Of a DNA stretch of 61,241 nucleotides, positions 24,052 through 45,936 are shown in pieces; within the stretch, counting starts at the first letter, position 1; the number at the start of each line of letters is the position of its first letter. Made by a program: the position numbers and the translations under genes. Origin of the DNA: an uncultured Verrucomicrobiota bacterium (GTDB taxonomy: Bacteria; Verrucomicrobiota; Kiritimatiellia; SLAD01); NCBI GenBank assembly GCA_964425945.1, contig CAYRPR010000001.1:1-61241 (forward strand), given 5' to 3'. The notes under the pieces are model-generated. The model worked only from the letters and a program-made list of their open reading frames with translations, did no database searches and was not told the origin of the DNA.

Positions 24052-25545
24052 ATGAATAGAGGGACGAATTGCGGGGTATCGAGAGCGGGTGCGGTTCTCT
24101 TTTCTGGCTTGGCCGGCGTGTTACTCGCCGTCGTTCCTCAAACCGATGCGGCTTATGAATCCGCGGCTCATGTGATCAACGCGTCAGGCGGTCACATGGA
24201 AAATCTGCTTTATCAAACTACGACGGCCGTGGGTCAGGGACACGGGCTGGGCTTCAACTCATCCGCATCCATTAGTCACTACGCGGGTTTCATTCAGCGG
24301 GATTCCTCCGGCAACGATTATGCTCCGGTGCTGGCGCCGATCGGTCAGTGGGTGGCGTGGGTCAGCAGTGAATTCGAGGTCACCCTGTGCGCCAGCGATC
24401 AGGATGGCATTCCGCCGTCCGTGAGCGCCGAGTGGCTTCCCACCGGGGCCGTACTGCAGGATCACGGCAATGGTTGCGCGACGCTGATCTGGACGCCCGA
24501 GAGCGTCGACCACGGTGTGCATGGCATCCGCATTACGGCCAGTGATGGGATCAGAGAAGTGACGCAGGTGGTGCGACTATACGTCGGCGGCGCCGAGGAG
24601 GACGCCGATCCGCAGACCGGCCTGCCCGAATCGCTCGTGACCTGGTCCGTGCCCATCCTGTCCATTGAGGCCGATCCGTTTGCAACCAGTTCGCTGGTGG
24701 AATGGGAGTCCAAACCGGATGTGGTCTACGACATGTACGGCAGTGATGACGGAGAGAACTGGAGCGTGATCAGTGCGTCCGTTGCGGCCGATGATGACAC
24801 CGTTGAGCAAACGGACAACACGTTGGCGGATCGCTCGTGGCGCTTCTATCAAGTGGTGTTCGAGGGCGAGACGCCGTCGAGTTCGGCGCAGTCGTGGAGT
24901 CTGGCCCGATCCGAAGTGCAGGCCGGCACGTACAGCATGTACGGGTCTCCGGCGCGTTCCGACCGGAAGTTCGACGGCCAGATGGGCACGTCGCTCGCTT
25001 CGGTATTGACCGGCCACAACAGTGGGATCGGCACCCAGACGGGCGACGAAGTCTATGTGTTGGAGAGCGACGGAAACTGGCGGATGCTTTACCTCGACAC
25101 GACCGGCGTGTGGCGGGAAAGCGACGGCAGCGCATCGTACTGTGAGCTGGAACCGGGTCAGGGTTTCTTCGTGGCGCGGTTCACGCCGTCCTCCACGCAA
25201 TGGAGCATGGCCGGGGAGATCGACGGCAACGGTACCGGTACCGCGACCATCCGGGAGGGCTGGAACATCCTCAATTTCGCGGAGGGGCGCCCGGTCAATC
25301 TCAACAACGTCCTCGGCAATAAACCGTCCGGCGGCGCGTCAGAGGAACAGTCCGACCTGATCGTGGTGTATCAATCGGACGGTTCCTGGCGCCGGTACAT
25401 GTATATACAGGGGTGGGGCGCCCCCTACGACGGCAAATGGTGGGATTTGGACGGCAACCAGATCGTCCAGATCACCAATCAACCCGGTCGCGCTTTCTAC
25501 TACTACCGAAAGCCGGGGGCGGGGCAGACGACGGTGGATTATTGA
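24052..25545 (+). CDS. Exported multi-domain protein (one cadherin-like Ig domain, a beta-sandwich, and a duplicated C-terminal module)
   Basis: Start at MNRG after AGGAGA, with a signal peptide. 'PVLAPIG...ASDQDG...LIWTPES...ITASDG' matches the cadherin-like repeats of the giant proteins. Confidence 0.65.
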   Translation: MNRGTNCGVSRAGAVLFSGLAGVLLAVVPQTDAAYESAAHVINASGGHMENLLYQTTTAVGQGHGLGFNSSASISHYAGFIQRDSSGNDYAPVLAPIGQWVAWVSSEFEVTLCASDQDGIPPSVSAEWLPTGAVLQDHGNGCATLIWTPESVDHGVHGIRITASDGIREVTQVVRLYVGGAEEDADPQTGLPESLVTWSVPILSIEADPFATSSLVEWESKPDVVYDMYGSDDGENWSVISASVAADDDTVEQTDNTLADRSWRFYQVVFEGETPSSSAQSWSLARSEVQAGTYSMYGSPARSDRKFDGQMGTSLASVLTGHNSGIGTQTGDEVYVLESDGNWRMLYLDTTGVWRESDGSASYCELEPGQGFFVARFTPSSTQWSMAGEIDGNGTGTATIREGWNILNFAEGRPVNLNNVLGNKPSGGASEEQSDLIVVYQSDGSWRRYMYIQGWGAPYDGKWWDLDGNQIVQITNQPGRAFYYYRKPGAGQTTVDY

Positions 25546-25546
25546 G

Positions 25547-26419
25547 ATGGATCGAACACACCGCAGAGTCATCCGCCGGCGAAAACGGTGGCGACGTGTC
25601 GGCGGCGGGAGCGGCGGACTATCCTACGCCTGGCTGGTGAGGGCGTCGCTCTCGACCGCCGTATCGTTTTGCTGCCTGATGGCGATGTCGGTGTCCGGAG
25701 CCGTAGTGATGACGGAAACATGGAGTGATGGGCATGCCGAGGGCTGGACCGGTGTCGGTACGGATATGACCGTGACCTACAGCGGCGTCGAAGGCCTTCC
25801 GCCCGGATCCCTGTCCGGGACCTTCGGCAGTCAGGCGATTCCCGCATCCGAGGTGGGCGCGTTTCAGGCGACGGTTGCCGCTTCGGGCGGCGGATTTACC
25901 GGAGATTACTGGACGGATGTGCCGGGCTGGACCGGTTGGACGTTCAGTTTTCTGGCCGCCGATATCCTGCCGTCCAGCGTTCAACTGCGTCTGCATGGAA
26001 ATGGATGGACGGCCTGGTACAACGTGACCGCGCAAATCAACAACGTGGGGCTGTGGCAATCCGTTTCTGTTCCGAGTGTCTACACGGCGGCTTGGGTGCC
26101 GCCCGGCAATGAGGTCAACTGGTCCAACGCGCTGTCCGACGTGGAGTGGATCGAGGTCCAGGTCGGTCGGGCGGGTGAGGACGAACAGTCCTACTTCCTC
26201 GACAATTTCCGTATCTCGATGAATGAGCTGGGCGGGTCGGCCGCCATACCGGAGCCGGACTATGCCCTGATGATGGCCCTGTTCATGCTTCTGCTTCTTC
26301 GTGGTGTTAAGTCCCGTGCCGAGGCCGAACGCCGCGGTGATGTTGTATCCGAGTCGCGGAGTCCGGCGACCGGCATGGATACAAGGTTTTATGTCGATCA
26401 GCGAGTTCTATCTGAATAG
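25547..26419 (+). CDS. Exported protein with PEP-CTERM-like sorting tail
   Basis: Signal peptide and a beta-rich domain, then 'AAIPEPDYALMMALFMLLLLRGVKSR' (PEP motif, hydrophobic helix, basic cluster). Confidence 0.65.
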   Translation: MDRTHRRVIRRRKRWRRVGGGSGGLSYAWLVRASLSTAVSFCCLMAMSVSGAVVMTETWSDGHAEGWTGVGTDMTVTYSGVEGLPPGSLSGTFGSQAIPASEVGAFQATVAASGGGFTGDYWTDVPGWTGWTFSFLAADILPSSVQLRLHGNGWTAWYNVTAQINNVGLWQSVSVPSVYTAAWVPPGNEVNWSNALSDVEWIEVQVGRAGEDEQSYFLDNFRISMNELGGSAAIPEPDYALMMALFMLLLLRGVKSRAEAERRGDVVSESRSPATGMDTRFYVDQRVLSE

Positions 26420-27215
26420 GAGTGTACCCTTGATTGTCACGGCATGGCTTGGTCTGAGCTGGACGCATGATATCGAGGCGGCGCAGAACCATACGGAGAC
26501 GTTTACATCCGGGCTGGCGGGTTGGATCCATCAGGGCCAGGGATCGATCCAGGTGACGAACGAATCCGTTCATGTGATTTTCGCCGCGCAGGGAGGACCG
26601 CCGCAACCGCAGACGGCGTCGTTGACCGCGGATACCTCCGCCTCCGGTGGCGCTTTTACGGGGGATTATGGCGATGCGGATGTGGACCTGATTGGATTCG
26701 ATTTCTACGCCGAAAACGCGCTCCCCTCGCTGTTGAAGTTGGAATGGTCCGCCGGCACGAACACCTATTTTCGCGACCTGAAGACGCATATCGGCGTCAC
26801 GGGCGCGTGGCATACGCTCACGGTTTCGCTGGCGGGCCGGGCGGCGGGGGCATGGCAGGGGCCGGAAGAGGAGACGGTATTCGCGCAATCCCTCCAAATC
26901 GTATCGCAGGTTGTCGTGCGGGTATCACGGGCCGGTGTCGCATCACAACGCTATCGCATCGACAACGTGCGCCTGGGCCGACGCCCCGAACCCGCGTCGA
27001 TGGACTTGTCGGAAAGCACGATTATCGTCAACTGGTCCAATTTGCAGTCCAATCTGGCGTATCAAGTACAGGCGGCAAACACGCTCACCGGGGAGTGGAC
27101 GCATATCGGAACACATATGGCCGGTGAGGATGTCGATTTCGTCGTAGAGCCGGTTTCGTCGACGAACACCGTTCGTTTTTATCGTTTACTTCAGGAGGAA
27201 GTCCATGCGCCGTAG
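26391..27215 (+). CDS. Exported paralog of the 25547 gene with a beta-sandwich 'FYRL' C-terminus
   Basis: Shared 'ASGG(A/G)FTGDY', 'LPS(L/S)(L/V)(K/Q)L' segments with the previous protein. Start chosen at MSISEF (26391). Confidence 0.6.
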   Translation: MSISEFYLNRSVPLIVTAWLGLSWTHDIEAAQNHTETFTSGLAGWIHQGQGSIQVTNESVHVIFAAQGGPPQPQTASLTADTSASGGAFTGDYGDADVDLIGFDFYAENALPSLLKLEWSAGTNTYFRDLKTHIGVTGAWHTLTVSLAGRAAGAWQGPEEETVFAQSLQIVSQVVVRVSRAGVASQRYRIDNVRLGRRPEPASMDLSESTIIVNWSNLQSNLAYQVQAANTLTGEWTHIGTHMAGEDVDFVVEPVSSTNTVRFYRLLQEEVHAP

Positions 27216-27786: not shown

Positions 27787-27787
27787 T

Positions 27788-30700
27788 ATGCGATCCGCCA
27801 GACTAGCCGGACTTGCTTTGCTGTGGGCCGCGATGTGGCTCCTGTCCGGCGTCCGCGACGCGTCAGCAGCCGGATACAGCGTCTCCTCCTGCGGAGGGGT
27901 GGCGGCGTGCAGTGGCAACTTCTGTTACTGCTGTGACTCCGAAGGCGTCTATAACGGCGGCAATTGCGTGTGGTACACATGGAATCGCCGGTGCCAGGCC
28001 GGCGAGAAACTGACTTGGTGTACGGACGCCCACAAATGGGCGGCGGACGCGAAATCGCGCGGATGGCCCGTCTGCAGCGTGCCCAAGGTCGGAGCGATCG
28101 GCGTCTACTCGGGACAGCATGTCGGCTACGTGGATGCCATTGAAGGCGATTATGTGTGGACCCGTGAGCAGGCCTGCTGGGGATTCTCCGGCGTCAAATA
28201 TATCAAGCGTCATAAGAGTTATTGGGATCTTGGCTATATCTACTTCAAAAATGACTCGTGTGCGCCTACCACCGGCAATCTGAAGGTGACGATTGAGCCA
28301 TCGGGTGCGCGTAGCGCGGGTGCGCAGTGGCGCCGTACGGGTACGAGCACGTGGCGGAACAGCGGGTACACGGAGACGGGTCTTTCGACGGGCAGCAAGA
28401 CGGTGGAATTCAAGACGATCTCGAACTGGGACAAGCCGGCCAACGCGAGCATCACGGTCAACGCGGGCCAGACGGCTTCGATGACGAAGACGTACGTTCG
28501 TCACAAGGGCTCGCTGAAGGTGACGATCAACCCCTCGGACGCGCGCACGGCGGGCGCGAAGTGGCGCCGGACGGGCACGAGTACCTGGCGTGACAGCGGT
28601 GCTACGGAGTCGAACATCGACACGGGCACGTACACGGTGGAGTTCAACACGTTGGCCAGTCCGTGGATCAAGCCTTCGAACATCAGCGTATCGATCACGA
28701 AGAACAATACGACGTCGGCCACGGCGCGTTATAACCGACCGCCGGTTCTGGCGTCGCCGGGCAGTCATTTTGTGCATGTCGGCGCGTTGTTGACGTTCCC
28801 GGTGACGGCGACGGACGCGGATGGCGACGCGATCACATTGAGTATGGCGAGCGCGCCGTCGGGTGCGACGCTGGTCTCGACGGGCGGTGTGGGTACATTG
28901 CGGTATACGCCGACGTTGGCGCAGTCCGGCGGGACCTTCACGCCGAGCTTCACGGCGACGGACGCGCTGAACGCGAAGGATACGAAGAGCGGGACGATCC
29001 AGGTGGGTTCGCCGCCGACGATCGATCCGATTGCGCCCCAGCGCGCGCGTGTGGGGCAGTTGTACGAGTTGGACGTGCAGGCCGACGATCCGAACGGCGA
29101 CGTGATTACGTTGACGATGGGCAACGCCCCCTCCGGGGCGGTGTTCGATCCGGGCGATGGCCGTCATGGCGTGTTCACGTTCACGCCGGAGTCGTCGCAG
29201 GGCGGCGAGGTGCATGACATCGTATTCACGGCCAGTGATGCGGACGGTCAGCACAGTGTGACGGTCACGCTGATCATCGGCGCGCCGCCGGTGTTACAGC
29301 CGGTTGACGACGTGGCGCTGACCGCGGGTCAGATCGCGAGCTTTACGGTAACCGCGGCGGATCCGAACAACGATGCGAAGACGTTTACGATGACGGGCGC
29401 GCCGGAGACGGCGACGCTGACGGGCTCGGGCGATAGCCGTACGTTTTCATACACGGCGCTGGAGTCGGAGAAGGGGATCGCGTTCGACATCACGTTCCAG
29501 GTGTCGGAGATCGACGGCGAGGACAGCGCGACGATGCGTCTTCGTGTGCAGGGTCCGCCGGAGTTCGTTGAGATCCCGCCGCAACGGGTGGTCATTACGA
29601 ATGAGCTGGAACTGGCGGTGGAAGCGGTGGATCCGGACGGGGACGCGATGACGTTTTCGATGACCGACGCGCCGCCGTCGGCCGTGTTCGAGACGCACGC
29701 GTCGGGCGGGACGTTCCGTTACACGCCTTCGGCGGAGGAGGGGGCGCAGACCTATACGGTGACGTTCACGGCCTCGGCGATCGACGGGGTGACGGGGATG
29801 GAGGTGCCGGTTCTGGTGGGCGTGCCGCCGTTGATGACGGCGCCGGTGACACAGCAAGTGGCCAAGTTTAACCTGCTGGAGTTCGAGGTGAGCGCCTCGG
29901 ACCTGAACGACGACGAACTGGTATTAAGCGTGGCTTCGTTGCCGGAGAACGCGGAGTTCGAGGTGGATGGGCCGGTGGGGGTGTTCCGGTTCACGCCGTC
30001 GTCGTTCCAGGGCGATCAGGATTACGCGGTGGTGTTCCGGGTCGAGGACGGGCTCGACGGATACGATGAGCGTACGGTGGACATTCGCGTGCTCGACGAC
30101 GACATGTACGAGCAGAACGATCTGATGGAGGAGGCGACCGACTTCAATCCATATCGTGGGATGACGCGTCCGGCGAAGCAGTCGGACGACGACTGGTATT
30201 ACATTGACCTGCCGTTCGGCCGTCAACGGGTCAGCGTGGATGTGCAGTTCGACCGTGAGTTGGGCGATATGCAGACCGTGTTGTACAACGCGCAGGGTGT
30301 GGTGGTGGGATACGGCGTTACGATGGCATCGGGATTGGAGTTGCATGCGGATAGTCCCTATTTTGGGCGGCACTATCTGGTGATATTTGGAGAGAACGTT
30401 GGGAATGGATACGCGCTCCTGTGGGATCACGCGGATTCGTGGGACGGTTGCGTCGGGGCGGATGACGCCTATGCGCCGAATCACACGCGGGATACGGCGG
30501 TGGTGTTGACGTCGGGTGAATGGCTGACGGACGGGTTGGGCGTGGGGATCGCGGGTCCGGCGGACTGGTATGTGATCGATGTTCCGGGCGGTGAGGAATG
30601 GTTGAGCGTTACGAGTATCTACGGTCAGGTGGAGCATCCGTTGCGATTGGAGGTGTACGATCCGGACGGCGAGTTGATTGCTTCGGTGGATGGTGCGGAT

Positions 30701-33517: not shown

Positions 33518-33526
33518 GGTGAAATA

Positions 33527-34237: not shown

Positions 34238-34267
34238 TTCATGAAATCACAAAATGGGAGTAGCGAT

Positions 34268-35744: not shown

Positions 35745-35762
35745 ACAACGGAGTACACAATC

Positions 35763-36749
35763 ATGAAAACTATGATAATTACCTGTATCTGCGCGGCGGC
35801 CCTGCTGGTCGGCGCGACGGTTCGCGCCGAGGCGCCGCCATCGTCCATCTATTACCAGGGGCGTCTGCTCGATGCCGGCGGCGATCCGGTGGACGCGACC
35901 ATTGACGTCGAAGTGCGCCTATTCACCGAGGAAAGCGGCGGCACGGCGGTGTGGAGCCAGGCGCTTTCCGATATCTCCGTGGTCAACGGCCTCTACAGCT
36001 TCTTCTTCGGTGACGGAGGCCTGGCTGAAGCATTGGCCAACGACTCCGTCTGGCTCGAGTCAGAGGTTGACGGAGAAACCCTCGCACCGCGGCAGCGGTT
36101 GATATCCGTTCCTTACGCCCTGCGCGCCGCAACGGCCGGCCAATTGGATCCTCCGATGTCGGGCGTGCCGACCGGCGTGATCATCATGTGGAGCGGCGGT
36201 CTGGGCGAAATACCGGACGGATGGGCCTTGTGCGACGGTCTGAACGGAACGCCGGACCTGCGTGAACGGTTTGTGATGGGCGCGGGGGTCGAGGACGATG
36301 TCGGCGACATCGTCGGCGCCAACTCCCTCGTGCTTACCGCCGGTCAACTGCCATCCCACGCGCATACCGGATCGCTGGAACTGGCGGGCGCACATGCGCA
36401 CACATCACCCAACGCCCCCTCCGGCGGATCACACACCCATTCCGGCGGGGCGATCAACAATTCCGGGAGCCACACCCACTCCATCCGGTATGGAAATTAC
36501 AGCGAAACCGGCCGAGGTCGTCCGGGTGGCAAATACGGTAACTACACTCAGTTCAACGTGACGTCCGTGTCCGGAGGGAATCACACGCATACGTACAGCG
36601 TGTCGAGCGCGGGGAACCACACGCATACCCTCACTGTGAGTACGACCAACACCCATGCCCACACCGTAACCCTGGAACAAACCGGCGGGAGCGAGGCGAT
36701 CGACAATCGGCCCGCCTATTTCGCACTGGCCTTCATCATGAAGCTGTAA
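35763..36749 (+). CDS. Sec-signal-bearing phage-tail-collar/fibre-like protein with HxH ladder (paralog 2)
   Basis: Signal 'AAALLVGATVRA'. 'PDGWALCDGLNGTPDLRERF'. Motifs HAH, HAH, HTH, HTH, then an insert, then HTH, HTH, HAH. Ends 'DNRPAYFALAFIMKL'. Confidence 0.85.
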   Translation: MKTMIITCICAAALLVGATVRAEAPPSSIYYQGRLLDAGGDPVDATIDVEVRLFTEESGGTAVWSQALSDISVVNGLYSFFFGDGGLAEALANDSVWLESEVDGETLAPRQRLISVPYALRAATAGQLDPPMSGVPTGVIIMWSGGLGEIPDGWALCDGLNGTPDLRERFVMGAGVEDDVGDIVGANSLVLTAGQLPSHAHTGSLELAGAHAHTSPNAPSGGSHTHSGGAINNSGSHTHSIRYGNYSETGRGRPGGKYGNYTQFNVTSVSGGNHTHTYSVSSAGNHTHTLTVSTTNTHAHTVTLEQTGGSEAIDNRPAYFALAFIMKL

Positions 36750-36766
36750 AAAACGGAGAAGATTAC

Positions 36767-37741
36767 ATGAAAACAATGATACAAAATACCCTGTGCGCGT
36801 TGGCACTGATCGTCGGGGTCGCCGTACAAGCCGCCAGCCCGGCCCTGATCAACTACCAGGGACGTCTGCTCGATACGGCTGACGAACCGGTGAACGCGAA
36901 TGTGTCCGTCGTCGTACGGGTGTTCACCCAGCCGTCCGGCGGCAGCGCGGTGTGGGAGGAAAACGTCGGCTCCGTTCTCGTGATCAACGGTCTCTACAAC
37001 TTCCAGTTCGGCGACGCGGGTCTATCCGATGCGCTGGACAACGACCAGGCCTGGCTGGAGTTGACGATGGGCGGCAATACGTTCTCGCCCCGCCAGCGGC
37101 TGGTGTCGGTCCCTTACGCCCTGCATGCCGAGATAGCGGGCGAGGTCGAGGACGCTCCGTCCGGCGTACCGAGCGGCTTGATTGTGATGTGGTACGGCGC
37201 ATTGAGTGCGATTCCGGACGGGTGGCTGCTGTGTGACGGATCGAATGACACACCCGACCTGAGGAACCGGTTCGTGTATGGGGCGTCCGACAGCGTTTCG
37301 CCGGGCACAACGGGAGGCGCCAATTCGTACGTGCTGGCCACGGCCCAATTGCCTGCCCACACGCATGCCGGGGCATCCAGTACGGAGGGATCCCATACGC
37401 ATACCGTGACTACGGCGAGCGCCGGCGCGCACACGCACACCGCGTCGGTCAATAGCCCGAGCCATCGGCACAACCATTATCAGCGCAGTTACAGTGGCAC
37501 GTATCCCCAGGACTCCGTTGCCACGTCGCCGAATACCGGAACGGCCACCATCAACAGCGGTTCATCCGGGAACCACAACCACACGCGCCCGAACGTCAGC
37601 GGCGGATCGCACGGGCACACCATCAGCATTACATCAAACGGAGCGCATGAGCACGATCTGACCATTGACACCACGGGTGACAATGAGGCCATCGACAATC
37701 GGCCGGAGACCATGGTGCTCGCGTTCATCATGAAGGAGTAG
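36767..37741 (+). CDS. Sec-signal-bearing phage-tail-collar/fibre-like protein with HxH ladder (paralog 3)
   Basis: Signal 'ALALIVGVAVQA'. 'PDGWLLCDGSNDTPDLRNRF'. Motifs HTH, HTH, HTH, HRHNH, then an insert, then HNH, HGH, HEH. Ends 'DNRPETMVLAFIMKE'. Confidence 0.85.
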   Translation: MKTMIQNTLCALALIVGVAVQAASPALINYQGRLLDTADEPVNANVSVVVRVFTQPSGGSAVWEENVGSVLVINGLYNFQFGDAGLSDALDNDQAWLELTMGGNTFSPRQRLVSVPYALHAEIAGEVEDAPSGVPSGLIVMWYGALSAIPDGWLLCDGSNDTPDLRNRFVYGASDSVSPGTTGGANSYVLATAQLPAHTHAGASSTEGSHTHTVTTASAGAHTHTASVNSPSHRHNHYQRSYSGTYPQDSVATSPNTGTATINSGSSGNHNHTRPNVSGGSHGHTISITSNGAHEHDLTIDTTGDNEAIDNRPETMVLAFIMKE

Positions 37742-37876
37742 GGCGTCTCGACGTGGGATACCGGCGTGGGTCCGCAAGGCAAGCGCTCGCAATGCATCGA
37801 GGACCCATGGGGGGCGACTGACTGCGCCTGAATGGTGGATATTGTTGTGCCGAACAATTCAGGAAACCGAATAGGG

Positions 37877-40800
37877 ATGACCAATGGGCGCGAGAGGAAG
37901 GCCGTTCAACGCGGCGCCCTGTCGGCTTGTGTACTCCTGCTGATGGCGGCCGCCCTGATCGCAACGTACCCCGCGCGCGCGGACTACAGCCTGCACGTTC
38001 CCGGTGTATACACGCATGATCAATTCGGCTTCGTAGTGTCCTATCCCGCCGAGTGGTCGGTGGTGACCGGGCCGTCAGCCGATGGCGTGGGCGTCGTGTC
38101 CTTCGAGAGCGCGGCGGGGGATCGCATCGTATGCTCCTTCGAGACGTGGACTGGAAAAGGCGGCCTCATGGAGCGTCTGGCAGACGGCGGCGCCCTTCTT
38201 GACGGCATCCTGTCGTCGTGGTTGCCTGATGAGCCAAACGCGTTTGCGGCTGGCGATGCGCCGGCTGTTCGCGTCGCGTGGCCGGCTGAATTCGGGAACA
38301 CCCGGCTGACCACGTTCTTTGTTAAGTACGATTTGGTCTTCCGGATCGATTATGCGCGGGTGTCGGCCGCGGATCACCTGGAGGCGTATGATCACTTGCT
38401 GGATTCGTTCTTCTACGAGCCTTTCCCGCCCCCCGAGCAGGAGTGGATTGCCAATGCCACGCGCGAATTCGCGATATACATGCCAACGCGGGGCTGGACC
38501 GTGCGTCATGAAACCTGGGCCACGGATTATGAATTCGAAATAGAGGAGAAACTGGATTTCGTTCATGTCGATGGCGCCATGATATGGATCGATGTATGGA
38601 GCAATCCTGGAGGACTGGACCTGGATCAGTGGATGGCCACGAATGCATCCATCCTTTCCTTTGGGCCGGAGGATGTGTCGGCGATGTCGCTGTCGGACGG
38701 GCTGATCACGGCGTACCGACATGAAGAAGCGGGTCCGGAAGTCCAAGCGTTCAATAGTGTTCAAACACTCTTTGCCTTCGGCTCGAAAGTATACCGGGCC
38801 AGCTACCTCAAGCGGGACGGTGGCGCCGCGCTGGCGCTATTTGATGAATTGGTTCAGAGCGTATCATTTCAGCCGTCGCCGCGTTGGAATGATTCTTCCG
38901 TACTCGCCGTTTACGAGCGCCGGACCGCATCCAGCGTCGGAGAGATCGTTCCGCTCGTGTACTCCTGCGGCGGCCAGAATGATACCTGCCCGTGCGGCGC
39001 ATACAATCCGTTTCCGTGTTGTAAACATACCGACTGCTATGCGGATGGTTCCGATGGAAATTGCACATGGCACGCGTGGCATCGCGGATGCTGCGATTGG
39101 AACAAGAATATCCCGCCGCGCGGAAATGCCAACACCTGGGCCGGTGTATTCAGCAGCCATGCGGACTACACACTGTCATCCACGCCGCAAGTCGGCGATA
39201 TCGCCTGCAAGAACTCGGGAACGTTCGGCCATGTGGCCTATGTCACATCGGTGGGCTCGACTACGGTTACTGTAACCGAGCAGAACTGCTGTGGCGCCGT
39301 ATGGGGTGTGCCCAGCGGAACGCGCACACACACGTACAGTAAGAGCTACTTCGACGGGGGATATGCCCGGCCTAAATCCGCCACCGGCAGCCTGAAGGTG
39401 ACGATTGAGCCCTCGGGTGCGCGTAGCGCGGGTGCGCAGTGGCGCCGTACGGGCACGAGCACGTGGCGGAACAGCGGGTATACGGAGACGGGTTTGTCGA
39501 CGGGGTCGAAGACGGTGGAGTTCAAGACGATCTCGAACTGGGACAAGCCGGCCAACGCGAGCATCACGATCAACGCGGGCCAGACGGCTTCGATGACGAA
39601 GACGTACGTGCGTCACAAGGGTTCATTGACGGTGACGATCAACCCGGCGGATGCGCGCACGGCGGGCGCTCAGTGGCGTCGGACGGGCACGAGCACCTGG
39701 CGCAATAGCGGGGCGACGGAGTCGAGCATCGACACGGGCACGTACACGGTGGAGTTCAACACGTTGGCCAGTCCGTGGATCAAGCCTTCGAACATCAGCG
39801 TATCGATCACGAAGAACAATACGACGTCGGCCACGGCGCGTTATAACCGACCGCCGGTTCTGGCGTCGCCGGGCAGTCATTTTGTGCATGTCGGCGCGTT
39901 GTTGACGTTCCCGGTGACGGCGACGGACGCGGATGGCGACGCGATCACATTGAGTATGGCGAGCGCGCCGTCGGGTGCGACGCTGGTCTCGACGGGCGGT
40001 GTGGGTACATTGCGGTATACGCCGACGTTGGCGCAGTCCGGCGGGACCTTCACGCCGAGCTTCACGGCGACGGACGCGCTGAACGCGAAGGATACGAAGA
40101 GCGGGACGATCCAGGTGGGTTCGCCGCCGACGATCGATCCGATTGCGCCCCAGCGCGCGCGTGTGGGGCAGTTGTACGAGTTGGACGTGCAGGCCGACGA
40201 TCCGAACGGCGACGTGATTACGTTGACGATGGGCAACGCCCCCTCCGGGGCGGTGTTCGATCCGGGCGATGGCCGTCATGGCGTGTTCACGTTCACGCCG
40301 GAGTCGTCGCAGGGCGGCGAGGTGCATGACATCGTATTCACGGCCAGTGATGCGGACGGTCAGCACAGTGTGACGGTCACGCTGATCATCGGCGCGCCGC
40401 CGGTGTTACAGCCGGTTGACGACGTGGCGCTGACCGCGGGTCAGATCGCGAGCTTTACGGTAACCGCGGCGGATCCGAACAACGATGCGAAGACGTTTAC
40501 GATGACGGGCGCGCCGGAGACGGCGACGCTGACGGGCTCGGGCGATAGCCGTACGTTTTCATACACGGCGCTGGAGTCGGAGAAGGGGATCGCGTTCGAC
40601 ATCACGTTCCAGGTGTCGGAGATCGACGGCGAGGACAGCGCGACGATGCGTCTTCGTGTGCAGGGTCCGCCGGAGTTCGTTGAGATCCCGCCGCAACGGG
40701 TGGTCATTACGAATGAGCTGGAACTGGCGGTGGAAGCGGTGGATCCGGACGGGGACGCGATGACGTTTTCGATGACCGACGCGCCGCCGTCGGCCGTGTT

Positions 40801-43800
40801 CGAGACGCACGCGTCGGGCGGGACGTTCCGTTACACGCCTTCGGCGGAGGAGGGGGCGCAGACCTATACGGTGACGTTCACGGCCTCGGCGATCGACGGG
40901 GTGACGGGGATGGAGGTGCCGGTTCTGGTGGGCGTGCCGCCGTTGATGACGGCGCCGGTGACACAGCAAGTGGCCAAGTTTAACCTGCTGGAGTTCGAGG
41001 TGAGCGCCTCGGACCTGAACGACGACGAACTGGTATTAAGCGTGGCTTCGTTGCCGGAGAACGCGGAGTTCGAGGTGGATGGGCCGGTGGGGGTGTTCCG
41101 GTTCACGCCGTCGTCGTTCCAGGGCGATCAGGATTACGCGGTGGTGTTCCGGGTCGAGGACGGGCTCGACGGATACGATGAGCGTACGGTGGACATTCGC
41201 GTGCTCGACGACGACATGTACGAGCAGAACGATCTGATGGAGGAGGCGACCGACTTCAATCCATATCGTGGGATGACGCGTCCGGCGAAGCAGTCGGACG
41301 ACGACTGGTATTACATTGACCTGCCGTTCGGCCGTCAACGGGTCAGCGTGGATGTGCAGTTCGACCGTGAGTTGGGCGATATGCAGACCGTGTTGTACAA
41401 CGCGCAGGGTGTGGTGGTGGGATACGGCGTTACGATGGCATCGGGATTGGAGTTGCATGCGGATAGTCCCTATTTTGGGCGGCACTATCTGGTGATATTT
41501 GGAGAGAACGTTGGGAATGGATACGCGCTCCTGTGGGATCACGCGGATTCGTGGGACGGTTGCGTCGGGGCGGATGACGCCTATGCGCCGAATCACACGC
41601 GGGATACGGCGGTGGTGTTGACGTCGGGTGAATGGCTGACGGACGGGTTGGGCGTGGGGATCGCGGGTCCGGCGGACTGGTATGTGATCGATGTTCCGGG
41701 CGGTGAGGAATGGTTGAGCGTTACGAGTATCTACGGTCAGGTGGAGCATCCGTTGCGATTGGAGGTGTACGATCCGGACGGCGAGTTGATTGCTTCGGTG
41801 GATGGTGCGGATGGCCGGGTGGAGTGGAGCGGCGCGCTGGTATCGCGCGGGGCGCATGCGGTGAAGATCGAGTCGGTGAACGATCCGGTGTGCATTCCGT
41901 ATGATCTGATTGTGCATACGGCGCCTCGTGAGAATCTTCCGGTGGAATATCTGTCGGGACGTTATGTGCGTTTGCCGGTATCGGTGTCGGATCAACCGGG
42001 CCGCTGGCTGGCGCCGGACCCGTCGGAAGGAGGGCGGTACAACGCCGCGGGAGCCGGTGGCCGGACGGGTCCGGACTTCTGGGGCAATGTGCCGGCGTTG
42101 GCCAACCAGGTGATCGGGTTGGGCGGCTCGGTGCGTACGAACGGGTTGGACTGGCATCAGGCGCCGATGATTACGCGTTTGAGCGCAGGGAGCTGGAACC
42201 GGTTGTCGATCGAAGGGGAGCCGTTCGAGGGGCTGTATTTTCAGCGGGTGGTGGAGTTCGAGGAGGGCGACCGGGTGGTGGTGGTGCGCGACCAGTTGCT
42301 GAACCTGACCGATGAGTCGCTGGAATCACTGCTTACGATGGACAGTGTGAACCCGACGCCGGACTACGCGCAGGCGGATCTGCGCACGGCGAACGACGTG
42401 CGGACGGTGTTTGATCGGCCGGATCTGGTGACGGCGTCGTCGTTGTTGAGCGGGCGGACGGTGGCGTTGGGCTCGTCGCATCCGGCGGCGGTGCCGGACG
42501 CGTCGTTCCTGAGCCGGGTGAATCCCTACACGGTGCTGGCTTCGCCGAACGATCCGGACGGTGCGGCGGCGAATCTGTCGGTGAAGCTGATTCTGAATCA
42601 CGATCAACTCGGCGCGAATGAGTCGACCGAGGTTCTGTGGTATCTCGTGTTCGGGTCGGACGCGGATGATGCGGCGGATCAATTTGAGATTGCGGTGATG
42701 CGTAACGAGTGGGATGACGACGCGTTTGAGCCGAATGATGAGTTGGTTGGGGCGGTGGATGTGTCGGGTCAGTCCGGTGCGCGTTTGCGGGCGATCCAGG
42801 CCAACGATGACTGGTACGCGATCGAGTTGCCGATCGGGGTGCAGGACGTGAATGTGGAGGCTCGTTTTGCGCGGGCGCACGGCGACGTGCAGATCGACCT
42901 TTATTCGGCGGACGGGGACTGGCTGTGCGGGTCGGAATTGACCGACGAGGGCGCGACGCTTTCCTGTGTGGCGGCGGCGCACGGGATCGTTTATCTGCGC
43001 GTGTGGGGGGATGATTCGGGGAACGTGTACGATCTGGTCTGGACCGCCGGAAGCTCGTGGGGCGGGTGTGCGGGGTCGGTGGACGATGGGTTCGAGCCGA
43101 ACAACAGCCGGGATGAAGCGGGCTTGCTGGCGCCGGGGGTGTGGGGCGCGCTGCAGTCGGGCGGCATGCTGGTGGCGGGAGATGATGACTGGTATGCGCT
43201 GGAGTTGACGCCGGATCAGGTGGCGTTGACCGTAACCAGTGCCCACCATGCGGCGCACGGCGACCTGGCCCTGGAACTGTACGATTGGACCGGGACGCTG
43301 TTGCACGCGGTGGACACGGCGTCGGACTACGAGGTGCTTGCGTTCACGGTGCCCCGGGAAGGGCGGTACTATCTGCGGGTTGTTCCGCCCGCGAGTGGTG
43401 CGACGTGCAATCCGTACGATCTGATCTGGAGCGGGGAACCGTCTGCGGATCCGGCGTCGGATGCGATTCATCTGTACGGACGGTATTTGTATCTGCCGAT
43501 TCAGCGGACGGGCGAACCGGGGCGGATGGTCCTGTCGGATCAGAGTGCGGGGTTGCGTTACGATGCGTCGGGGGTGGACGGCTTCGGGGGCGTGGATATC
43601 TGGCGTTACCTGACGATTCCGTGCGCGCATTACATCGGCTGGGACGGTTCGCAGGTGGTGACGAACGGCAAGGGCTGGGCGTCGGGTCCGGTGGTGGAGA
43701 AGCTGAGTGCGGGCGACTTGAATCATGCCCGTATCAGCGGTACGCCGAAGGATGGTCTGTTGTTCGTCCGTGACGTGCGCTTCATGGATGGCGACCGCGT

Positions 43801-44623
43801 GATCCTGATTGAAGATGTGCTGGTCAACGAGGGGGTTGATCCGTTGGACCAGGTGCTGACGATGGATACTTTCCATCCGAATCCGGACTATGACGAGGGC
43901 ATCCTCAACACCCGTAACTATGTGACCGCGCTATACCGGGATTTCGAACTGGCAGTGGCCGAGGCGACGCTTTCCGGAATCACACTGGCGGTGGGTTCGG
44001 AAAGTCCGTATGCGGTGGTGGACGCCTCCTTCCTGAGCCGGCAGAACCCCTATACGGTATTGAATGCGCCGAATCATCCGTCGGGTCAGGAGGCGAACTT
44101 CTCGCTCAAGATGTTGATGAACTATGGCGCCGTGCCGCCGGGTGCGGCCGTGACCGGTCGCTGGGAAATCGTCGTGGGGGTTTCGCGGGCCGAGGCGATA
44201 ACGCTGTGGCGTGAGTTGGGGGCGGATCAGCCGGCGATGATGGACATGCAGGGTTCCAGCCTGCCGGACTGGTGGGAGATCGCGTATTTCGGCGGATCGG
44301 TCGACCCGGATGCCGATGAGGATGGAGACGGCATGAGCAATCTCCGGGAGTACCTCGCGGGCACGGACCCCCATGATCCGGAGAGCGTATTCCGCGTGGA
44401 CTTCAGCGTTCCGGTTTTCGATCCGCTCATCCCGGGCGGTCCGGTTCTTCACTTTGAGATCCAGCCGGGCCGTCGCGGCACGCTGTTGTACGGGACCAAC
44501 CTGTTCGGTCCGTTCTGGCCGTTCCCGGATGCGCCGAGCGGTCCCGGCCGCCATTCCGTGACCGATCATTGGGATCGGATCGAAGGCACCATGTACTACT
44601 TACTGAGACTCGATGACCCCTAG
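37877..44623 (+). CDS. Giant exported CHAP-domain protein 2: two N-terminal copies of the 27205-type domain, a diverged CHAP head, then the same stalk as the 27788 protein
   Basis: Start chosen at MTNGRE with the signal 'ACVLLLMAAALIATYPARA'. CHAP Cys in 'DGNCTWHAW' (39062) and His in 'GTFGHVAYV' (39230). From 'GSLKVTIEPSG' onward it is collinear with the 27788 protein. Confidence 0.85.
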   Translation: MTNGRERKAVQRGALSACVLLLMAAALIATYPARADYSLHVPGVYTHDQFGFVVSYPAEWSVVTGPSADGVGVVSFESAAGDRIVCSFETWTGKGGLMERLADGGALLDGILSSWLPDEPNAFAAGDAPAVRVAWPAEFGNTRLTTFFVKYDLVFRIDYARVSAADHLEAYDHLLDSFFYEPFPPPEQEWIANATREFAIYMPTRGWTVRHETWATDYEFEIEEKLDFVHVDGAMIWIDVWSNPGGLDLDQWMATNASILSFGPEDVSAMSLSDGLITAYRHEEAGPEVQAFNSVQTLFAFGSKVYRASYLKRDGGAALALFDELVQSVSFQPSPRWNDSSVLAVYERRTASSVGEIVPLVYSCGGQNDTCPCGAYNPFPCCKHTDCYADGSDGNCTWHAWHRGCCDWNKNIPPRGNANTWAGVFSSHADYTLSSTPQVGDIACKNSGTFGHVAYVTSVGSTTVTVTEQNCCGAVWGVPSGTRTHTYSKSYFDGGYARPKSATGSLKVTIEPSGARSAGAQWRRTGTSTWRNSGYTETGLSTGSKTVEFKTISNWDKPANASITINAGQTASMTKTYVRHKGSLTVTINPADARTAGAQWRRTGTSTWRNSGATESSIDTGTYTVEFNTLASPWIKPSNISVSITKNNTTSATARYNRPPVLASPGSHFVHVGALLTFPVTATDADGDAITLSMASAPSGATLVSTGGVGTLRYTPTLAQSGGTFTPSFTATDALNAKDTKSGTIQVGSPPTIDPIAPQRARVGQLYELDVQADDPNGDVITLTMGNAPSGAVFDPGDGRHGVFTFTPESSQGGEVHDIVFTASDADGQHSVTVTLIIGAPPVLQPVDDVALTAGQIASFTVTAADPNNDAKTFTMTGAPETATLTGSGDSRTFSYTALESEKGIAFDITFQVSEIDGEDSATMRLRVQGPPEFVEIPPQRVVITNELELAVEAVDPDGDAMTFSMTDAPPSAVFETHASGGTFRYTPSAEEGAQTYTVTFTASAIDGVTGMEVPVLVGVPPLMTAPVTQQVAKFNLLEFEVSASDLNDDELVLSVASLPENAEFEVDGPVGVFRFTPSSFQGDQDYAVVFRVEDGLDGYDERTVDIRVLDDDMYEQNDLMEEATDFNPYRGMTRPAKQSDDDWYYIDLPFGRQRVSVDVQFDRELGDMQTVLYNAQGVVVGYGVTMASGLELHADSPYFGRHYLVIFGENVGNGYALLWDHADSWDGCVGADDAYAPNHTRDTAVVLTSGEWLTDGLGVGIAGPADWYVIDVPGGEEWLSVTSIYGQVEHPLRLEVYDPDGELIASVDGADGRVEWSGALVSRGAHAVKIESVNDPVCIPYDLIVHTAPRENLPVEYLSGRYVRLPVSVSDQPGRWLAPDPSEGGRYNAAGAGGRTGPDFWGNVPALANQVIGLGGSVRTNGLDWHQAPMITRLSAGSWNRLSIEGEPFEGLYFQRVVEFEEGDRVVVVRDQLLNLTDESLESLLTMDSVNPTPDYAQADLRTANDVRTVFDRPDLVTASSLLSGRTVALGSSHPAAVPDASFLSRVNPYTVLASPNDPDGAAANLSVKLILNHDQLGANESTEVLWYLVFGSDADDAADQFEIAVMRNEWDDDAFEPNDELVGAVDVSGQSGARLRAIQANDDWYAIELPIGVQDVNVEARFARAHGDVQIDLYSADGDWLCGSELTDEGATLSCVAAAHGIVYLRVWGDDSGNVYDLVWTAGSSWGGCAGSVDDGFEPNNSRDEAGLLAPGVWGALQSGGMLVAGDDDWYALELTPDQVALTVTSAHHAAHGDLALELYDWTGTLLHAVDTASDYEVLAFTVPREGRYYLRVVPPASGATCNPYDLIWSGEPSADPASDAIHLYGRYLYLPIQRTGEPGRMVLSDQSAGLRYDASGVDGFGGVDIWRYLTIPCAHYIGWDGSQVVTNGKGWASGPVVEKLSAGDLNHARISGTPKDGLLFVRDVRFMDGDRVILIEDVLVNEGVDPLDQVLTMDTFHPNPDYDEGILNTRNYVTALYRDFELAVAEATLSGITLAVGSESPYAVVDASFLSRQNPYTVLNAPNHPSGQEANFSLKMLMNYGAVPPGAAVTGRWEIVVGVSRAEAITLWRELGADQPAMMDMQGSSLPDWWEIAYFGGSVDPDADEDGDGMSNLREYLAGTDPHDPESVFRVDFSVPVFDPLIPGGPVLHFEIQPGRRGTLLYGTNLFGPFWPFPDAPSGPGRHSVTDHWDRIEGTMYYLLRLDDP
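39381..44598 (+). repeat. Copy 2 of the 5.2-kb direct repeat
   Basis: See copy 1. Identity ends about 25 nt before each stop codon ('...YYLLRLDEPQQ*' against '...YYLLRLDDP*'). Confidence 0.9.
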
Positions 44624-44703
44624 TCGTGAGCCGAAAAGGCTGGTACTGGTTTCCAATCTGTGCTTCTATGGATTGAGTATCTACGGAAAGATTTAGAGTC
44701 CCC

Positions 44704-45936
44704 ATGAGTCCCGAATATGTTGCCCTGCGCGGCCGAGGGCTGTTGGTCATTGCCGTCACGTTGCTCCTGCCCTGGTTGATCCTTCTGTATATCCTCCAAC
44801 CCTGGGAGGGCCCGACCGTCAAGACCGTCAGGCGTCCGTTGGTGGTCGATGCACCCAAGCGATCGGCGGGTTCGTGGGGTGATATCGAATACACCCGCAT
44901 CACCATCGCGCCGCCGGATGAGTTCCTGCGCGAGATGCTTCCGGCGGGCGGCGCGAAGGAAACCACCTGGTTCATCACTGACATGACCGAGGAGACGTTC
45001 ACGGAGTTCGTCGATGGGTTGGACCTTACCGATTCGCAGCGCACCTGGTTGAAGGACTCATTGCAGACGGCGCCCCTTGTCAACGGATACAAGCTTCACC
45101 CGGACAGTGAATTTATCCGCACGCTTTCACCGTCCGCGCGGGCCGCGATTTATCATCGCCTCGGCGAAACCGAACTGAACATGGCCCAGGAGCGGGCCTA
45201 TCGGTTTTGCGGCGAGCCCGACGAATGGTTTGCCGATGCGACCCTGCCGGAGCCCATCATCGAACGGATGCAATCGATGGTCTATGAAAACGGCCGGTTC
45301 CGCTTCTTTGCCGATATCGACCTTTTGCTCCCGTTGCTCGAGACGCAGGCGCAGCGATTGGATCTGGTGAAACTGCTGGCGCGCGAATCGACGCTATTGA
45401 TGCGATTGCATATCAACGCGGATACGGATATCGATCAGCTTGTCGAGTACTGGGGCAAGGGCGGTCGCAGCAAGGATGTACGTCCGTTGCTGGAATCGTT
45501 GTCCAGACTGCCGGGCGAGCAGTACATTGACGTCGTGCATCTGCTTCCGCCCTTTGCGCGGCGACGCTTGTACACCTATCCTCACGTGATCGCCGATGGA
45601 AAGGCGCACATGCGCGATTGTCATTGGACATCGCTGAATTTCTTCAATGAAGTGCCCGACGAGCGTTTGACCGATCCGGATTTCCAGTTTAAGCGTTTGA
45701 CGAATGACTACTATCCCGTTTACGGGGACCACGAGCTGGGGGATCTGGTATTCTTCATGGCGGGCAGCAACCAGCTGTATCATACCGCCGTGTATATTGC
45801 CGATGATGTCTTGTTCACGAAGAATGGCGCGCTTCCCTCACGGCCCTGGATGCTCGTGCGCCTGGAGGACATGCAGGACTATTATCCCAAACACGATCCC
45901 ATCGAGGTCCATTATTTCCGCCGTAGAGGACGTTGA
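44704..45936 (+). CDS. Membrane-anchored protein with C-terminal NlpC/P60-like (papain-fold) domain
   Basis: N-terminal TM 'LLVIAVTLLLPWLILLYIL'. The C-terminal segment 'RDCHWTSLNFF...ELGDLVFFMAGSNQLYHTAVYIADDVLFTKNG' fits the Cys...GDLVFF...H pattern of NlpC/P60. Confidence 0.6.
   Translation: MSPEYVALRGRGLLVIAVTLLLPWLILLYILQPWEGPTVKTVRRPLVVDAPKRSAGSWGDIEYTRITIAPPDEFLREMLPAGGAKETTWFITDMTEETFTEFVDGLDLTDSQRTWLKDSLQTAPLVNGYKLHPDSEFIRTLSPSARAAIYHRLGETELNMAQERAYRFCGEPDEWFADATLPEPIIERMQSMVYENGRFRFFADIDLLLPLLETQAQRLDLVKLLARESTLLMRLHINADTDIDQLVEYWGKGGRSKDVRPLLESLSRLPGEQYIDVVHLLPPFARRRLYTYPHVIADGKAHMRDCHWTSLNFFNEVPDERLTDPDFQFKRLTNDYYPVYGDHELGDLVFFMAGSNQLYHTAVYIADDVLFTKNGALPSRPWMLVRLEDMQDYYPKHDPIEVHYFRRRGR

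Follow-up and report, generated by a model that had tools for sequence, protein, structure and literature searches.

A conserved Kiritimatiellia gene cassette that joins chimeric phage-type fibres to giant CHAP-headed exoproteins, a candidate surface adhesion device

We analyzed a metagenome-derived contig of 61,241 bp from an uncultured bacterium of the class Kiritimatiellia, phylum Verrucomicrobiota (GenBank assembly GCA_964425945.1, contig CAYRPR010000001.1), which in its entirety is referred to below as the window, and focused on a gene cassette located at positions 24052-45936. The cassette is an unbroken run of 12 plus-strand genes, which encode three paralogous fibre proteins with phage-type tips, two giant multi-module proteins headed by CHAP domains (giants A and B), the smaller products of genes 1-4, 6 and 7, and a protein with a C-terminal NlpC/P60-fold domain (gene 12). 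The initial annotation of this stretch had counted 13 genes here; the coordinates of the open reading frames (ORFs) gave 12 and confirmed the uninterrupted run and its spacing, with intergenic gaps of at most 37 nt or overlaps as far as position 37741, followed by gaps of 135 nt and 80 nt. An N-terminal hydrophobic segment, in most cases followed by an AxA-like site, is present in 12 of the 12 products, in line with the proposal that every product carries a signal peptide or transmembrane (TM) anchor. Export leaders were judged by inspection together with the best 15-residue Kyte-Doolittle mean, which ranged from 1.3 to 2.8 for the cassette products and from 0.3 to 1.0 for cytoplasmic regulators. 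However, the cytoplasmic control TilS scored 1.44, between gene 3 (1.29) and gene 7 (1.51), and the leaders of these two products are therefore weak calls.

Five other Kiritimatiellia loci carry the cassette genes in an unchanged order. Because the genes outside it differ between loci, the conserved block is the cassette itself. The core order kept over the six loci comprises a LuxR-type regulator gene (seen beside the cassette at three of the five other loci), genes 1, 2, 3, 6 and 7, the three fibre genes and one CHAP giant. The locus of Kiritimatiellia AMR_MDS_0145 (L002/L003/L010) carries the LuxR gene, genes 1-4, the giant, genes 6 and 7, the three fibres, a gene-12-like gene and a gene for a 156-aa protein, and in two further syntenic loci (L004 and L005/L006) the giant likewise precedes gene 6 and a gene-12-like copy stands beside the fibres. 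In Kiritimatiellae FR_21 (L007/L011), the kinase, sigma-like and LuxR genes are followed by genes 1-3, 6 and 7 and the fibres, with the giant displaced by 10 kb; in the fifth locus (L022), the order is kinase, 181-aa protein, sigma-like protein, LuxR, genes 1-3, 6 and 7, fibres, YceI and giant. Lack of co-conservation in related genomes had been named at the outset as a possible refutation of a single system, and the genes proved syntenic in all five loci. In the protein search, the named close orthologues were all proteins from metagenome-assembled genomes of Kiritimatiellia or Kiritimatiellae. A true gene 6 orthologue was found in just 2 of the 185,579 GTDB species representatives, which indicates that the carrier clade is narrow.

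Table 1. Positions of the cassette genes, their domains and surrounding features in the window
Feature	Position	Strand	Content and evidence
Ser/Thr protein kinase, 1090 aa	18518-21790	-	Pkinase E 4.8e-38; TPR C-terminal region
Conserved ~174-aa protein	21845-22369	-	Between kinase and sigma-like gene; 42% identical to L022 counterpart
Sigma-like protein, 261 aa	22317-23102	-	Sigma70_r2 E 0.062; 60% identical to L022 gene, 52-60% to L011 gene
LuxR/GerE-type helix-turn-helix regulator	23239-23826	+	GerE E 5.6e-16; degenerate receiver-like N-terminus, Response_reg E 0.01
Gene 1, 497 aa	24052-25545	+	N-terminal module of gene 6; giant-type Ig-like domain; C-terminal beta-rich region
Gene 2, 290 aa	25547-26419	+	Putative PEP-CTERM-type tail (IPEP, hydrophobic helix, basic cluster); gene 3 paralogue
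Gene 3	26391-27215	+	Gene 2 paralogue, 31% over 179 aa, without PEP-CTERM; beta-sandwich end '...RFYRL'
Gene 4, 193 aa	27205-27786	+	L002 orthologue 74% identical; 29-32% identical to giant B residues 219-330
Giant A, 1909 aa	27788-33517	+	Pfam and domain map; L002 orthologue 64% identical
CHAP domain of giant A (type-A head)	27950-28171	+	PF05257, 35.2 bits against gathering 26
Direct repeat, copy 1	28615-33486	+	4,872 bp, 100% identical to 39727-44598; offset 11,112 bp
X domain, ~260 aa, giant A copy 1	30818-31597	+	Other copies at 32342-33142, 41930-42709, 43454-44254
TSP3/beta-sandwich C-termini of giants	33272-33517, 44384-44623	+	Also in gene 6, gene 3, P0247, P0252, P0256-P0260, P0262; no family model matched
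Gene 6, 236 aa	33527-34237	+	Gene-1-type N-terminal module; TSP3 repeats (TSP_3 weak); giant-type C-terminal beta-sandwich
Gene 7, 160 aa	34241-34723	+	37-44% identical in five loci; always immediately upstream of fibre triad
Fibre 1, 327 aa	34761-35744	+	PHROG tail fibre E 2.6e-26; Bdello_MAT_N 35.7 bits; 6 HxH
Fibre 2, 328 aa	35763-36749	+	PHROG tail fibre E 3.9e-26; Bdello_MAT_N 29.6 bits; 7 HxH
Fibre 3, 324 aa	36767-37741	+	PHROG tail fibre E 7.7e-27; Bdello_MAT_N 40.9 bits; PDB tail fibres 9qgo, 9nxk
Giant B, 2248 aa	37877-44623	+	Pfam; signal peptide, gene-4-like region, type-B CHAP head, giant A body
CHAP domain of giant B (type-B head)	39041-39286	+	PF05257, 47.8 bits against gathering 26
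Gene 12	44704-45936	+	Uncleaved-looking N-terminal TM helix; ~250-aa novel alpha/beta region; C-terminal NlpC/P60-fold domain (~45601-45933)
Terminator-like hairpin	45934-45959	+	9 pairs, 6 G-C, T-rich tail; at gene 12 stop, before tilS
ORFs without Pfam match (E <= 0.001)	1232-2104, 2131-2754, 4050-4832, 55801-57711, 60278-60985	+

The three fibre proteins share one architecture, namely a signal peptide, an N-terminal domain resembling that of the mosaic adhesive trimer (MAT) proteins, a tail-collar and a needle with HxH motifs. The leaders of fibres 1-3, judged by inspection, end at the AxA-like sites AQA/GP, AEA/PP and VQA/AS, respectively. Over approximately residues 125-327, the fibres matched the phage tail-fibre PHROGs 2097, 1800 and 8469 with E-values of 1e-22 to 1e-27; each contains 6-8 HxH motifs, which are in register across the three proteins, and searches of the PDB matched the solved tail-fibre structures 9qgo, 9nxk and 6ov6. 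The prediction of three tail-fibre-like HxH proteins was thus borne out, with only Pfam Collar (PF07484) remaining below its gathering threshold (15.3-20.5 bits against 24). The 202 phage records matched by the fibres, among them fibres of Burkholderia, Ralstonia and Pseudomonas phages, always covered residues 137-321 only, at ~34% identity, and no phage record covered the N-terminal domain. The tips of the cassette fibres are genuine relatives of phage tail-fibre tips, which we take to be of the T4 gp12/gp37 type, with a shared collar and in-register HxH motifs, but the fibres differ from them in lacking a phage or tailocin context and in carrying signal peptides and a cellular N-domain. A similar collar/HxH likeness links them to the stand-alone bacterial tail-collar proteins, and many of the cellular homologues found in the protein search are labelled 'microcystin-dependent protein'. 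Distant full-length relatives of the fibres lie in contexts without the cassette, P0050 beside an RHS protein and P0033 beside an ATPase of the type II secretion system type.

The N-terminal domain of the fibres (approximately residues 15-85) matched the NCBIfam model of the Bdellovibrio MAT N-domain with E-values of 1.7e-10 to 5e-7. MAT proteins of Bdellovibrio bacteriovorus are displayed on the surface and combine a conserved N-domain behind the signal peptide with swapped tips (Caulton et al. 2024, PMC10769870). The N-domain, ~130 aa long and beta-rich, directly follows the signal peptide and is thought to bind the surface of the producer; the proteins have ~600-1,100 aa, are encoded by 21 genes in a predator, and end in S74, TNF-like, lectin or novel sandwich tips (PMC10769870). 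The cassette fibres and the MAT fibres (NF053851) both consist of a signal peptide, a beta-rich N-domain and a phage- or adhesin-type tip, and both occur as multiple paralogues per genome. In contrast to the MAT proteins, the cassette fibres are only ~325 aa long, without a long shaft, their tip is a tail-collar with an HxH needle and no S74, and they form a fixed triad beside a CHAP giant and its own regulators. By analogy with the MAT proteins, the cassette fibres may likewise form trimers and be displayed on the cell surface.

The fibres have one-to-one orthologues that occur in the same order, with 59-61% identity within orthologue groups versus 46-48% between paralogues. The needle is the most paralogue-specific region of the fibre (62% identity between orthologues versus 40% between paralogues). 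Orthologue identity exceeding paralogue identity in a fixed order indicates that the triad stems from an ancient triplication maintained under purifying selection, a pattern compatible with three homotrimers or one heterotrimer. The match of the C-terminal 190 aa of each fibre to phage tail-fibre families and to the 202 phage records would also be expected of a degraded prophage or tailocin remnant, in which the fibres are leftover phage genes and the rest of the locus is an unrelated neighbourhood. However, no other phage gene was found in the 61 kb or in the five syntenic loci, on which grounds we rejected a prophage or tailocin origin. Furthermore, the fibres possess signal peptides and a non-phage N-domain, and the order of the triad and its neighbours is conserved at 46-66% protein identity, which argues for long-term selection in a cellular context. 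A phage remnant is thus highly improbable.

Giants A and B consist of one body with two divergent heads. In giant A, the signal peptide is followed by a Cys-rich segment and the CHAP domain (approximately residues 30-160), two ~78-aa beta domains, five Big_9/cadherin-like Ig repeats, two modules of ~500 aa, each with two PPC-like domains and one copy of a domain that we denote X (38% mutual identity between modules), one TSP3 repeat and an 80-aa beta-sandwich. The CHAP head is followed by ~1,750 residues of Ig-like, PPC-like, X and TSP3 modules, and CHAP and the module shared with gene 6 stand at opposite ends of the protein. In both giants, Big_9 (five copies) and Cadherin_5 exceeded the Pfam threshold. 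PPC remained below gathering (23.2 and 25.8 bits against 25.9), as did TSP3 (~18 against 25), and the Pfam scan of the giants detected no PEGA domain at E <= 0.1. Thus, among the adhesin-type modules listed in the initial annotation, the cadherin-like Ig repeats were recovered, PPC and TSP3 were found only as sub-threshold matches, and the PEGA-like module was not detected. Like giant Ig-repeat adhesins with sorting tails, the cassette proteins contain cadherin-like/Big_9, PPC-like and TSP3 modules, and one cassette member has a putative PEP-CTERM-type tail; unlike such adhesins, the giants themselves lack PEP-CTERM, RTX, LPXTG and T9SS (type IX secretion system) tails and end in an unclassified beta-sandwich shared with gene 6.

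Both giants had been proposed to carry CHAP heads, and both heads are bona fide CHAP domains, scoring above the Pfam gathering threshold, for which cleavage of peptidoglycan is predicted. The Cys, His and acidic residues align with those of the staphylococcal SsaA-type structures 2k3a and 2lrj and of pneumococcal PcsB. In giant B, the alignment to SsaA and PcsB extends to a Glu-x-Asn motif; giant A reads E-Q-A at this position, without that Asn. The motifs GNC[TV]W, [GQ]HV and [ED]-Q do not vary among seven giants, and the catalytic residues, which had to be checked for non-conservation, are preserved in both heads and in all orthologues. Compared with secreted CHAP hydrolases (SsaA-type; PcsB, 4cgk), which have the same fold and the aligned Cys, His and Glu(-x-Asn), the CHAP domain here is the N-terminal head of a multi-module protein of 1,900-2,250 aa in a Gram-negative bacterium of the Planctomycetes-Verrucomicrobia-Chlamydiae (PVC) superphylum. 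It is preceded by a Cys-rich segment, exists as two types of head and lacks any coiled-coil or FtsEX-type partner. Type-A heads are found in giant A and L002 (86% identical), and type-B heads in giant B, L004, L006 and L022 (59-71% identical; 59-65% between giant B and the other three), whereas identity between the two types is 35-39% (37% between the heads of giants A and B). The presence of two interchangeable head types on one body suggests two substrate specificities.

The body of the two giants is a nearly perfect direct repeat. Overall, the copies extend over 28269-33486 and 39381-44598, and similarity stops 31 nt before the stop codon. The fully identical tract is preceded by an edge of ~350 bp (28269-28614) with ~92% identity. 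The limits of the repeat were taken from the identity profile at an offset of 11112; the repeat search alone gave only a 300-bp diverged edge. In the relatives, the single giant precedes gene 6 in L002, L004 and L006 and follows the fibres in L022 (in L011 it is displaced), and both positions are occupied in the window. Only one CHAP giant per locus is ancestral, and the window has gained its second one by a recent duplication confined to this lineage, with a head of the other type.

The exact identity of the repeat points to either very recent gene conversion or an effect of assembly. In an independent assembly of the same sample, a Logan contig of SRR9016296 (L001, 2,113 bp) matches positions 35763-37875, which comprise fibres 2 and 3 only; this contig stops ~134 nt past the stop codon of fibre 3, just short of the start of giant B. 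The break could reflect strain heterogeneity or a loss of coverage at the junction between fibre 3 and giant B. If a collapsed repeat had been traversed twice, or two strains joined, then an assembly artefact would have produced the second giant or made the bodies perfectly identical, and the genome would carry one giant, or two less similar ones. Such an artefact would account for 4,872 bp at exactly 100% identity in a metagenome-derived contig and for the only other recovered assembly of the sample, a 2.1-kb contig, ending just before giant B. However, the giant occurs at each of the two positions in relatives, the heads of giants A and B belong to two separately conserved types, and identity decays through the edge at 92% in the manner expected of a gene-conversion tract. 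We accordingly regard an artefact as quite unlikely, noting that a collapsed-repeat assembly could exaggerate the identity of the bodies, and we read the repeat as a real duplication homogenized by gene conversion.

Two compositional features of the giants were also recorded. GC skew is 0.23-0.28 over the giant bodies (29000-33000 and 40000-44000) versus 0.03-0.11 elsewhere, which is probably due to the amino acids and codons used in the repeat domains. Long ORFs of 373 and 516 aa run antisense within the giants (e.g., 31214-32764, minus strand). Because they are exactly duplicated along with the repeat, we rejected them as genes and consider them by-products of G+C-rich repeat-coding sequence.

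The ~260-aa X domain is present in two copies in each giant, and its consensus includes L.G.Y..LP, GTGG..G.DFW, NG..W, TLD..DPD.D and DPNGA..D..INLA.NYG. An exhaustive HMMER search of 1.84 billion proteins yielded 138 cluster representatives, nearly all of which are giant exoproteins; the partner domains of X in these include M36 metalloproteases, cadherin arrays and RTX-type repeats, and there is one plain signal-peptide/X/PEP-CTERM protein. A word-index protein search had returned no X match, not even the giants of the window, and since these relatives are public, such searches can miss domains embedded in very long proteins. Scans of Pfam and NCBIfam and PDB searches with 8- and 19-sequence profiles returned only noise for X, and the AlphaFold2 (AF2) model built from two copies in the window was poor (predicted local distance difference test (pLDDT) score 43.6). 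X may be a binding domain or an enzyme. At the C-terminus of the giants, a second uncharacterized module was apparent: many giant exoproteins of the PVC superphylum, several of them with X, terminate in a TSP3 repeat, in a short beta-sandwich that finishes with the motif '...[FY]YR[VLA]..', or in both. This shared C-terminus may represent an unrecognized sorting or anchoring domain. NCBIfam matches to myxobacterial CglD and MtsC, as well as to BamM and Amuc_1099, covered the TSP3 repeat only and were rejected as evidence of family membership.

The composition of the giants raises the possibility that the ligands of the fibres and giants are polysaccharide, mucin or mineral particles, in support of a saccharolytic life, with a CHAP domain that is auxiliary or acts on something other than peptidoglycan. 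The Ig-like, PPC-like and TSP3 calcium-binding modules that make up most of the giants are typical of adhesins, and the giant exoproteins in which X recurs also feature proteases, cadherin repeats and PEP-CTERM tails. Glycans are common ligands of phage collar/HxH tips and of MAT tips (PMC10769870), and an FGE-sulfatase gene lies beside the fibres in one syntenic locus. However, no carbohydrate-active enzyme or sulfatase gene is conserved within the cassette, and the catalytic residues of CHAP are strictly retained in head types A and B alike, which speaks for an enzymatic role of this domain maintained by selection. Adhesion to substrate or particles as the purpose of the cassette is, in our judgement, rather unlikely.

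The smaller products are linked to the giants by shared modules. BLAST comparisons among the locus proteins showed that genes 1 and 6 share a module at the N-terminus behind the signal peptide, that the Ig-like domain of gene 1 is common to the giants, and that the TSP3 and beta-sandwich parts of gene 6 are likewise common to the giants. On account of these shared modules, the small proteins appear to be partners of the giant and not just genes that happen to lie beside it. Gene 6 is 56-61% identical in five loci, gene 3 has orthologues in all syntenic loci, and gene 1 shares 32-33% identity with its orthologues in L010, L011 and L022; it also showed a weak He_PIG match (E 0.009), and its PDB profile search gave only noise. 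Gene 7 had no match in Pfam, NCBIfam or PHROG, with noise in the PDB profile search, and may be an assembly or anchoring factor. Gene 4 is possibly a lipoprotein, and its domain is also fused to the N-terminus of type-B giants; a PsbP-like assignment of gene 4 (E 0.014, only 30 residues covered) was rejected.

Gene 2 bears on how the products reach their destination. The motif [AV][IV]PEP followed by a hydrophobic helix and a basic cluster is visible at the end of gene 2 and of its orthologues in L010, L007 and L022. PF07589 matched the L007 and L022 orthologues weakly, whereas neither TIGR02595 nor PF07589 matched gene 2 of the window, which has 32 extra residues past the motif. The Pfam and NCBIfam scans revealed no exosortase in the 61-kb window, consistent with the initial annotation. 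However, its view of a Sec-exported apparatus is probably too strong if taken as Sec only, because the putative PEP-CTERM-type tail of gene 2 would imply an exosortase encoded elsewhere in the genome. The giants have Sec-type leaders and no RTX or two-partner secretion (TPS) domain match, and the window contains no transporter genes.

Gene 12, at the end of the run, had been proposed to contain an NlpC/P60-like domain. The fold was supported by an AF2 model built from 34 homologues (pLDDT 90.4) and by a Foldseek search of the PDB, in which nearly all matches were NlpC/P60 structures (4xcm, 3h41, MepS, Spr and RipA; probability 0.97-0.99), albeit with E-values of ~1e-2, target TM-scores of 0.4-0.5 and only ~110 C-terminal residues aligned. 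Sequence profiles gave no such support, with no match in Pfam, NCBIfam or PHROG at E <= 0.1 and no PDB sequence match. Conservation of the catalytic residues, on which the proposal also hung, was evident: C306, H360 and N374 are invariant in the 34 family members and in the syntenic paralogues, with N374 as the putative third catalytic residue, and W58, G59, R146, Y150, N159 and D204 are invariant in the family as well.

The gene 12 family comprises more than 1,796 hypothetical proteins from Planctomycetes, Verrucomicrobia and Kiritimatiellia, with the TM anchor, the ~250-aa region and the NlpC/P60 fold. The two homologue contexts examined within P0122-P0240 (Opitutus sp. ER46 and a marine Tara-derived scaffold) are unrelated to the cassette. 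The gene-12-like copies that adjoin the fibres in L002, L004 and L006 share only 28% identity with gene 12, and no gene-12-like gene is found near the cassette in L011 and L022. Of the predicted arrangement of CHAP giant, triple tail-collar and NlpC/P60 genes, the giant and the fibres were thus conserved and the third part was not. Judging from this distribution, gene 12 is peripheral and not a core cassette member, contrary to its initial inclusion in the system.

The two kinds of hydrolase-type domain could also point inward. If the cassette were an envelope module directed at the producer itself, the sacculus of that cell would be remodelled, or opened for surface structures, matrix or a sheath, by the CHAP giants and the NlpC/P60-like protein, and its envelope would include the fibres and Ig-repeat proteins as structural components. 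Gene 12 is predicted to be anchored in the inner membrane, its family is spread through the PVC superphylum in housekeeping-type contexts, and the nearest solved relatives of the CHAP heads include the division hydrolase PcsB. The locus itself is set among housekeeping genes such as tilS, folP and cdaA, and the fibre tips are conserved rather than diversifying. Conversely, a clade as narrow as two of the 185,579 GTDB representatives with gene 6 would be unexpected for a basic wall function, gene 12 is not part of the core, being absent from L011 and L022, CHAP tips a ~1,750-residue stalk of adhesin-type modules, and two divergent head types occur on one body. We consider an envelope module of this kind rather unlikely.

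Upstream of the cassette, the regulators recur with it. The LuxR gene adjoins the cassette in L010, L011 and L022, and the divergent arm with the kinase and sigma-like genes is present in L011 and L022. L011 (40-57% identity) and L022 each have a kinase orthologue upstream of the cassette, and because the ORF for the ~174-aa protein is conserved at the same position in L022, the divergent arm consists of three genes rather than two. With respect to the regulators noted initially, the LuxR-type regulator directly upstream and the Ser/Thr kinase were recovered, but the designation 'ECF sigma' was left unconfirmed by a Sigma70_r2 match at E 0.062 only; NCBIfam and PDB searches with the sigma-like protein returned nothing usable.

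No capsid, terminase, sheath, baseplate, VgrG/PAAR/Rhs, TpsB, ABC/MFP or Por_Secre_tail match was obtained in the window with the Pfam, NCBIfam and PHROG scans, and the stated lack of phage, type VI secretion system (T6SS), TPS, type I secretion system (T1SS) and T9SS-type parts accordingly held for the locus and its flanks. Taken as a whole, the cassette corresponds to none of the contractile injection systems, T6SS, T1SS adhesin operons or two-partner systems. Family libraries, the PDB and the literature on Kiritimatiellota CHAP, tail-collar/microcystin-dependent and non-phage HxH proteins likewise offered no described system matching the cassette, in agreement with its designation as undescribed. 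In our reading, it combines chimeric surface fibres with a giant hydrolase-tipped adhesin.

The cassette is embedded in ordinary chromosome. In Pfam scans, the upstream flank contains serA, a TPR/ExbB cluster, mutL and serS, and the downstream flank contains a tilS-like gene, folP, cdaA and ybbR, together with an ftsH-like ORF that lay outside the Pfam scan. Five other plus-strand ORFs of 207-636 aa beyond the locus had no Pfam match (Table 1). Rfam and tRNA scans of the whole window gave no match, and promoter and terminator scans of the region yielded overall counts no better than chance. The terminator-like hairpin at the gene 12 stop codon is suggested to be noteworthy by its position alone, given that the total number of such sites does not exceed chance.

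Taken together, these observations lead us to a tentative reading, to which we give somewhat less than an even chance: that the cassette is a chromosomal module of one Kiritimatiellia clade encoding a regulated device for adhesion at the cell surface, which bears a wall hydrolase at its distal end and is directed at non-self material. Expression would be under the control of LuxR and of the divergent arm of kinase, 174-aa protein and sigma-like protein. The fibre paralogues would form trimeric metal-stapled needles, whether as three homotrimers or as a single heterotrimer, which their N-domains would hold at the outer surface and whose tips would bind a stable ligand on foreign material. The C-terminal TSP3/beta-sandwich module common to gene 6 would hold the giant in place, perhaps with the help of gene 6 and of the putative PEP-CTERM protein, which an exosortase encoded elsewhere would fix. 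The products of genes 1-4, 6 and 7 would probably serve as anchoring, scaffold or assembly partners of the giant. The Ig-like stalk would then present the CHAP head at a distance of tens of nanometres from the producer, where it would cleave stem peptides or cross-bridges in peptidoglycan that belongs to other cells or to wall debris; having two head types would broaden the range of substrates. The purpose could be antagonism, epibiotic attachment or the harvesting of necromass.

Several points weigh against this reading. The match to the MAT N-domain, although significant, is partial (model positions 4-76 of 162) and reaches 30-41 bits against a cut-off of 60; the collar begins at about residue 131, directly behind the N-domain, there is no long shaft, and the fibres are far shorter than MATs. 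Because both the family score cut-off and the long shaft failed, we did not file the fibres as members of the MAT family. The fibre tips are not hypervariable between species and display no arms-race diversification; such conservation is more readily explained by a stable ligand, or by a role in structure, than by an arms race with prey. The choice of the C-terminus as the anchored end of the giant is a guess. The wall of the producer itself can also be the substrate of CHAP enzymes, as in the case of PcsB, and the peptidoglycan of a Gram-negative target is shielded by its outer membrane, with no membrane-breaching component evident in the scans of the cassette. Kiritimatiellia are known as saccharolytic anaerobes rather than as antagonists. 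The results computed for the function proposed initially, attaching to and cutting another cell's wall, would also fit self-remodelling or particle adhesion. The most specific version of a device aimed at non-self material, an undescribed contact-dependent device that works without a dedicated secretion system, in which the fibre triad recognizes a cell or its remains, the stalk of ~1,900 aa delivers one of the two interchangeable CHAP heads to cut the wall of that cell, and kinase, sigma-like protein and LuxR act as the switch, is possible but doubtful.

Irrespective of function, three uncharacterized modules are worth defining: the 260-aa X domain, the PVC-wide membrane-anchored family with an NlpC/P60 fold, and the C-terminal TSP3/beta-sandwich of the giants and gene 6. 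Were the cassette a plain adhesin or envelope cluster, it would be of local interest only. If it encodes the contact-dependent device, antagonism, epibiosis or necromass harvesting would be brought into a phylum known only as saccharolytic, and MAT-type fibres would represent a general bacterial strategy and not a peculiarity of Bdellovibrio. If our main reading of a surface adhesion device is right, the cassette would provide the first link between MAT-type fibres and a giant stalk-mounted CHAP hydrolase with a dedicated kinase/sigma-like/LuxR circuit. MAT-type chimeric fibres would then reach beyond the predatory Bdellovibrio into the PVC superphylum, and the Kiritimatiellia, poorly studied and mostly uncultured sugar degraders, would gain a mechanism for interacting with other cells or with wall debris.

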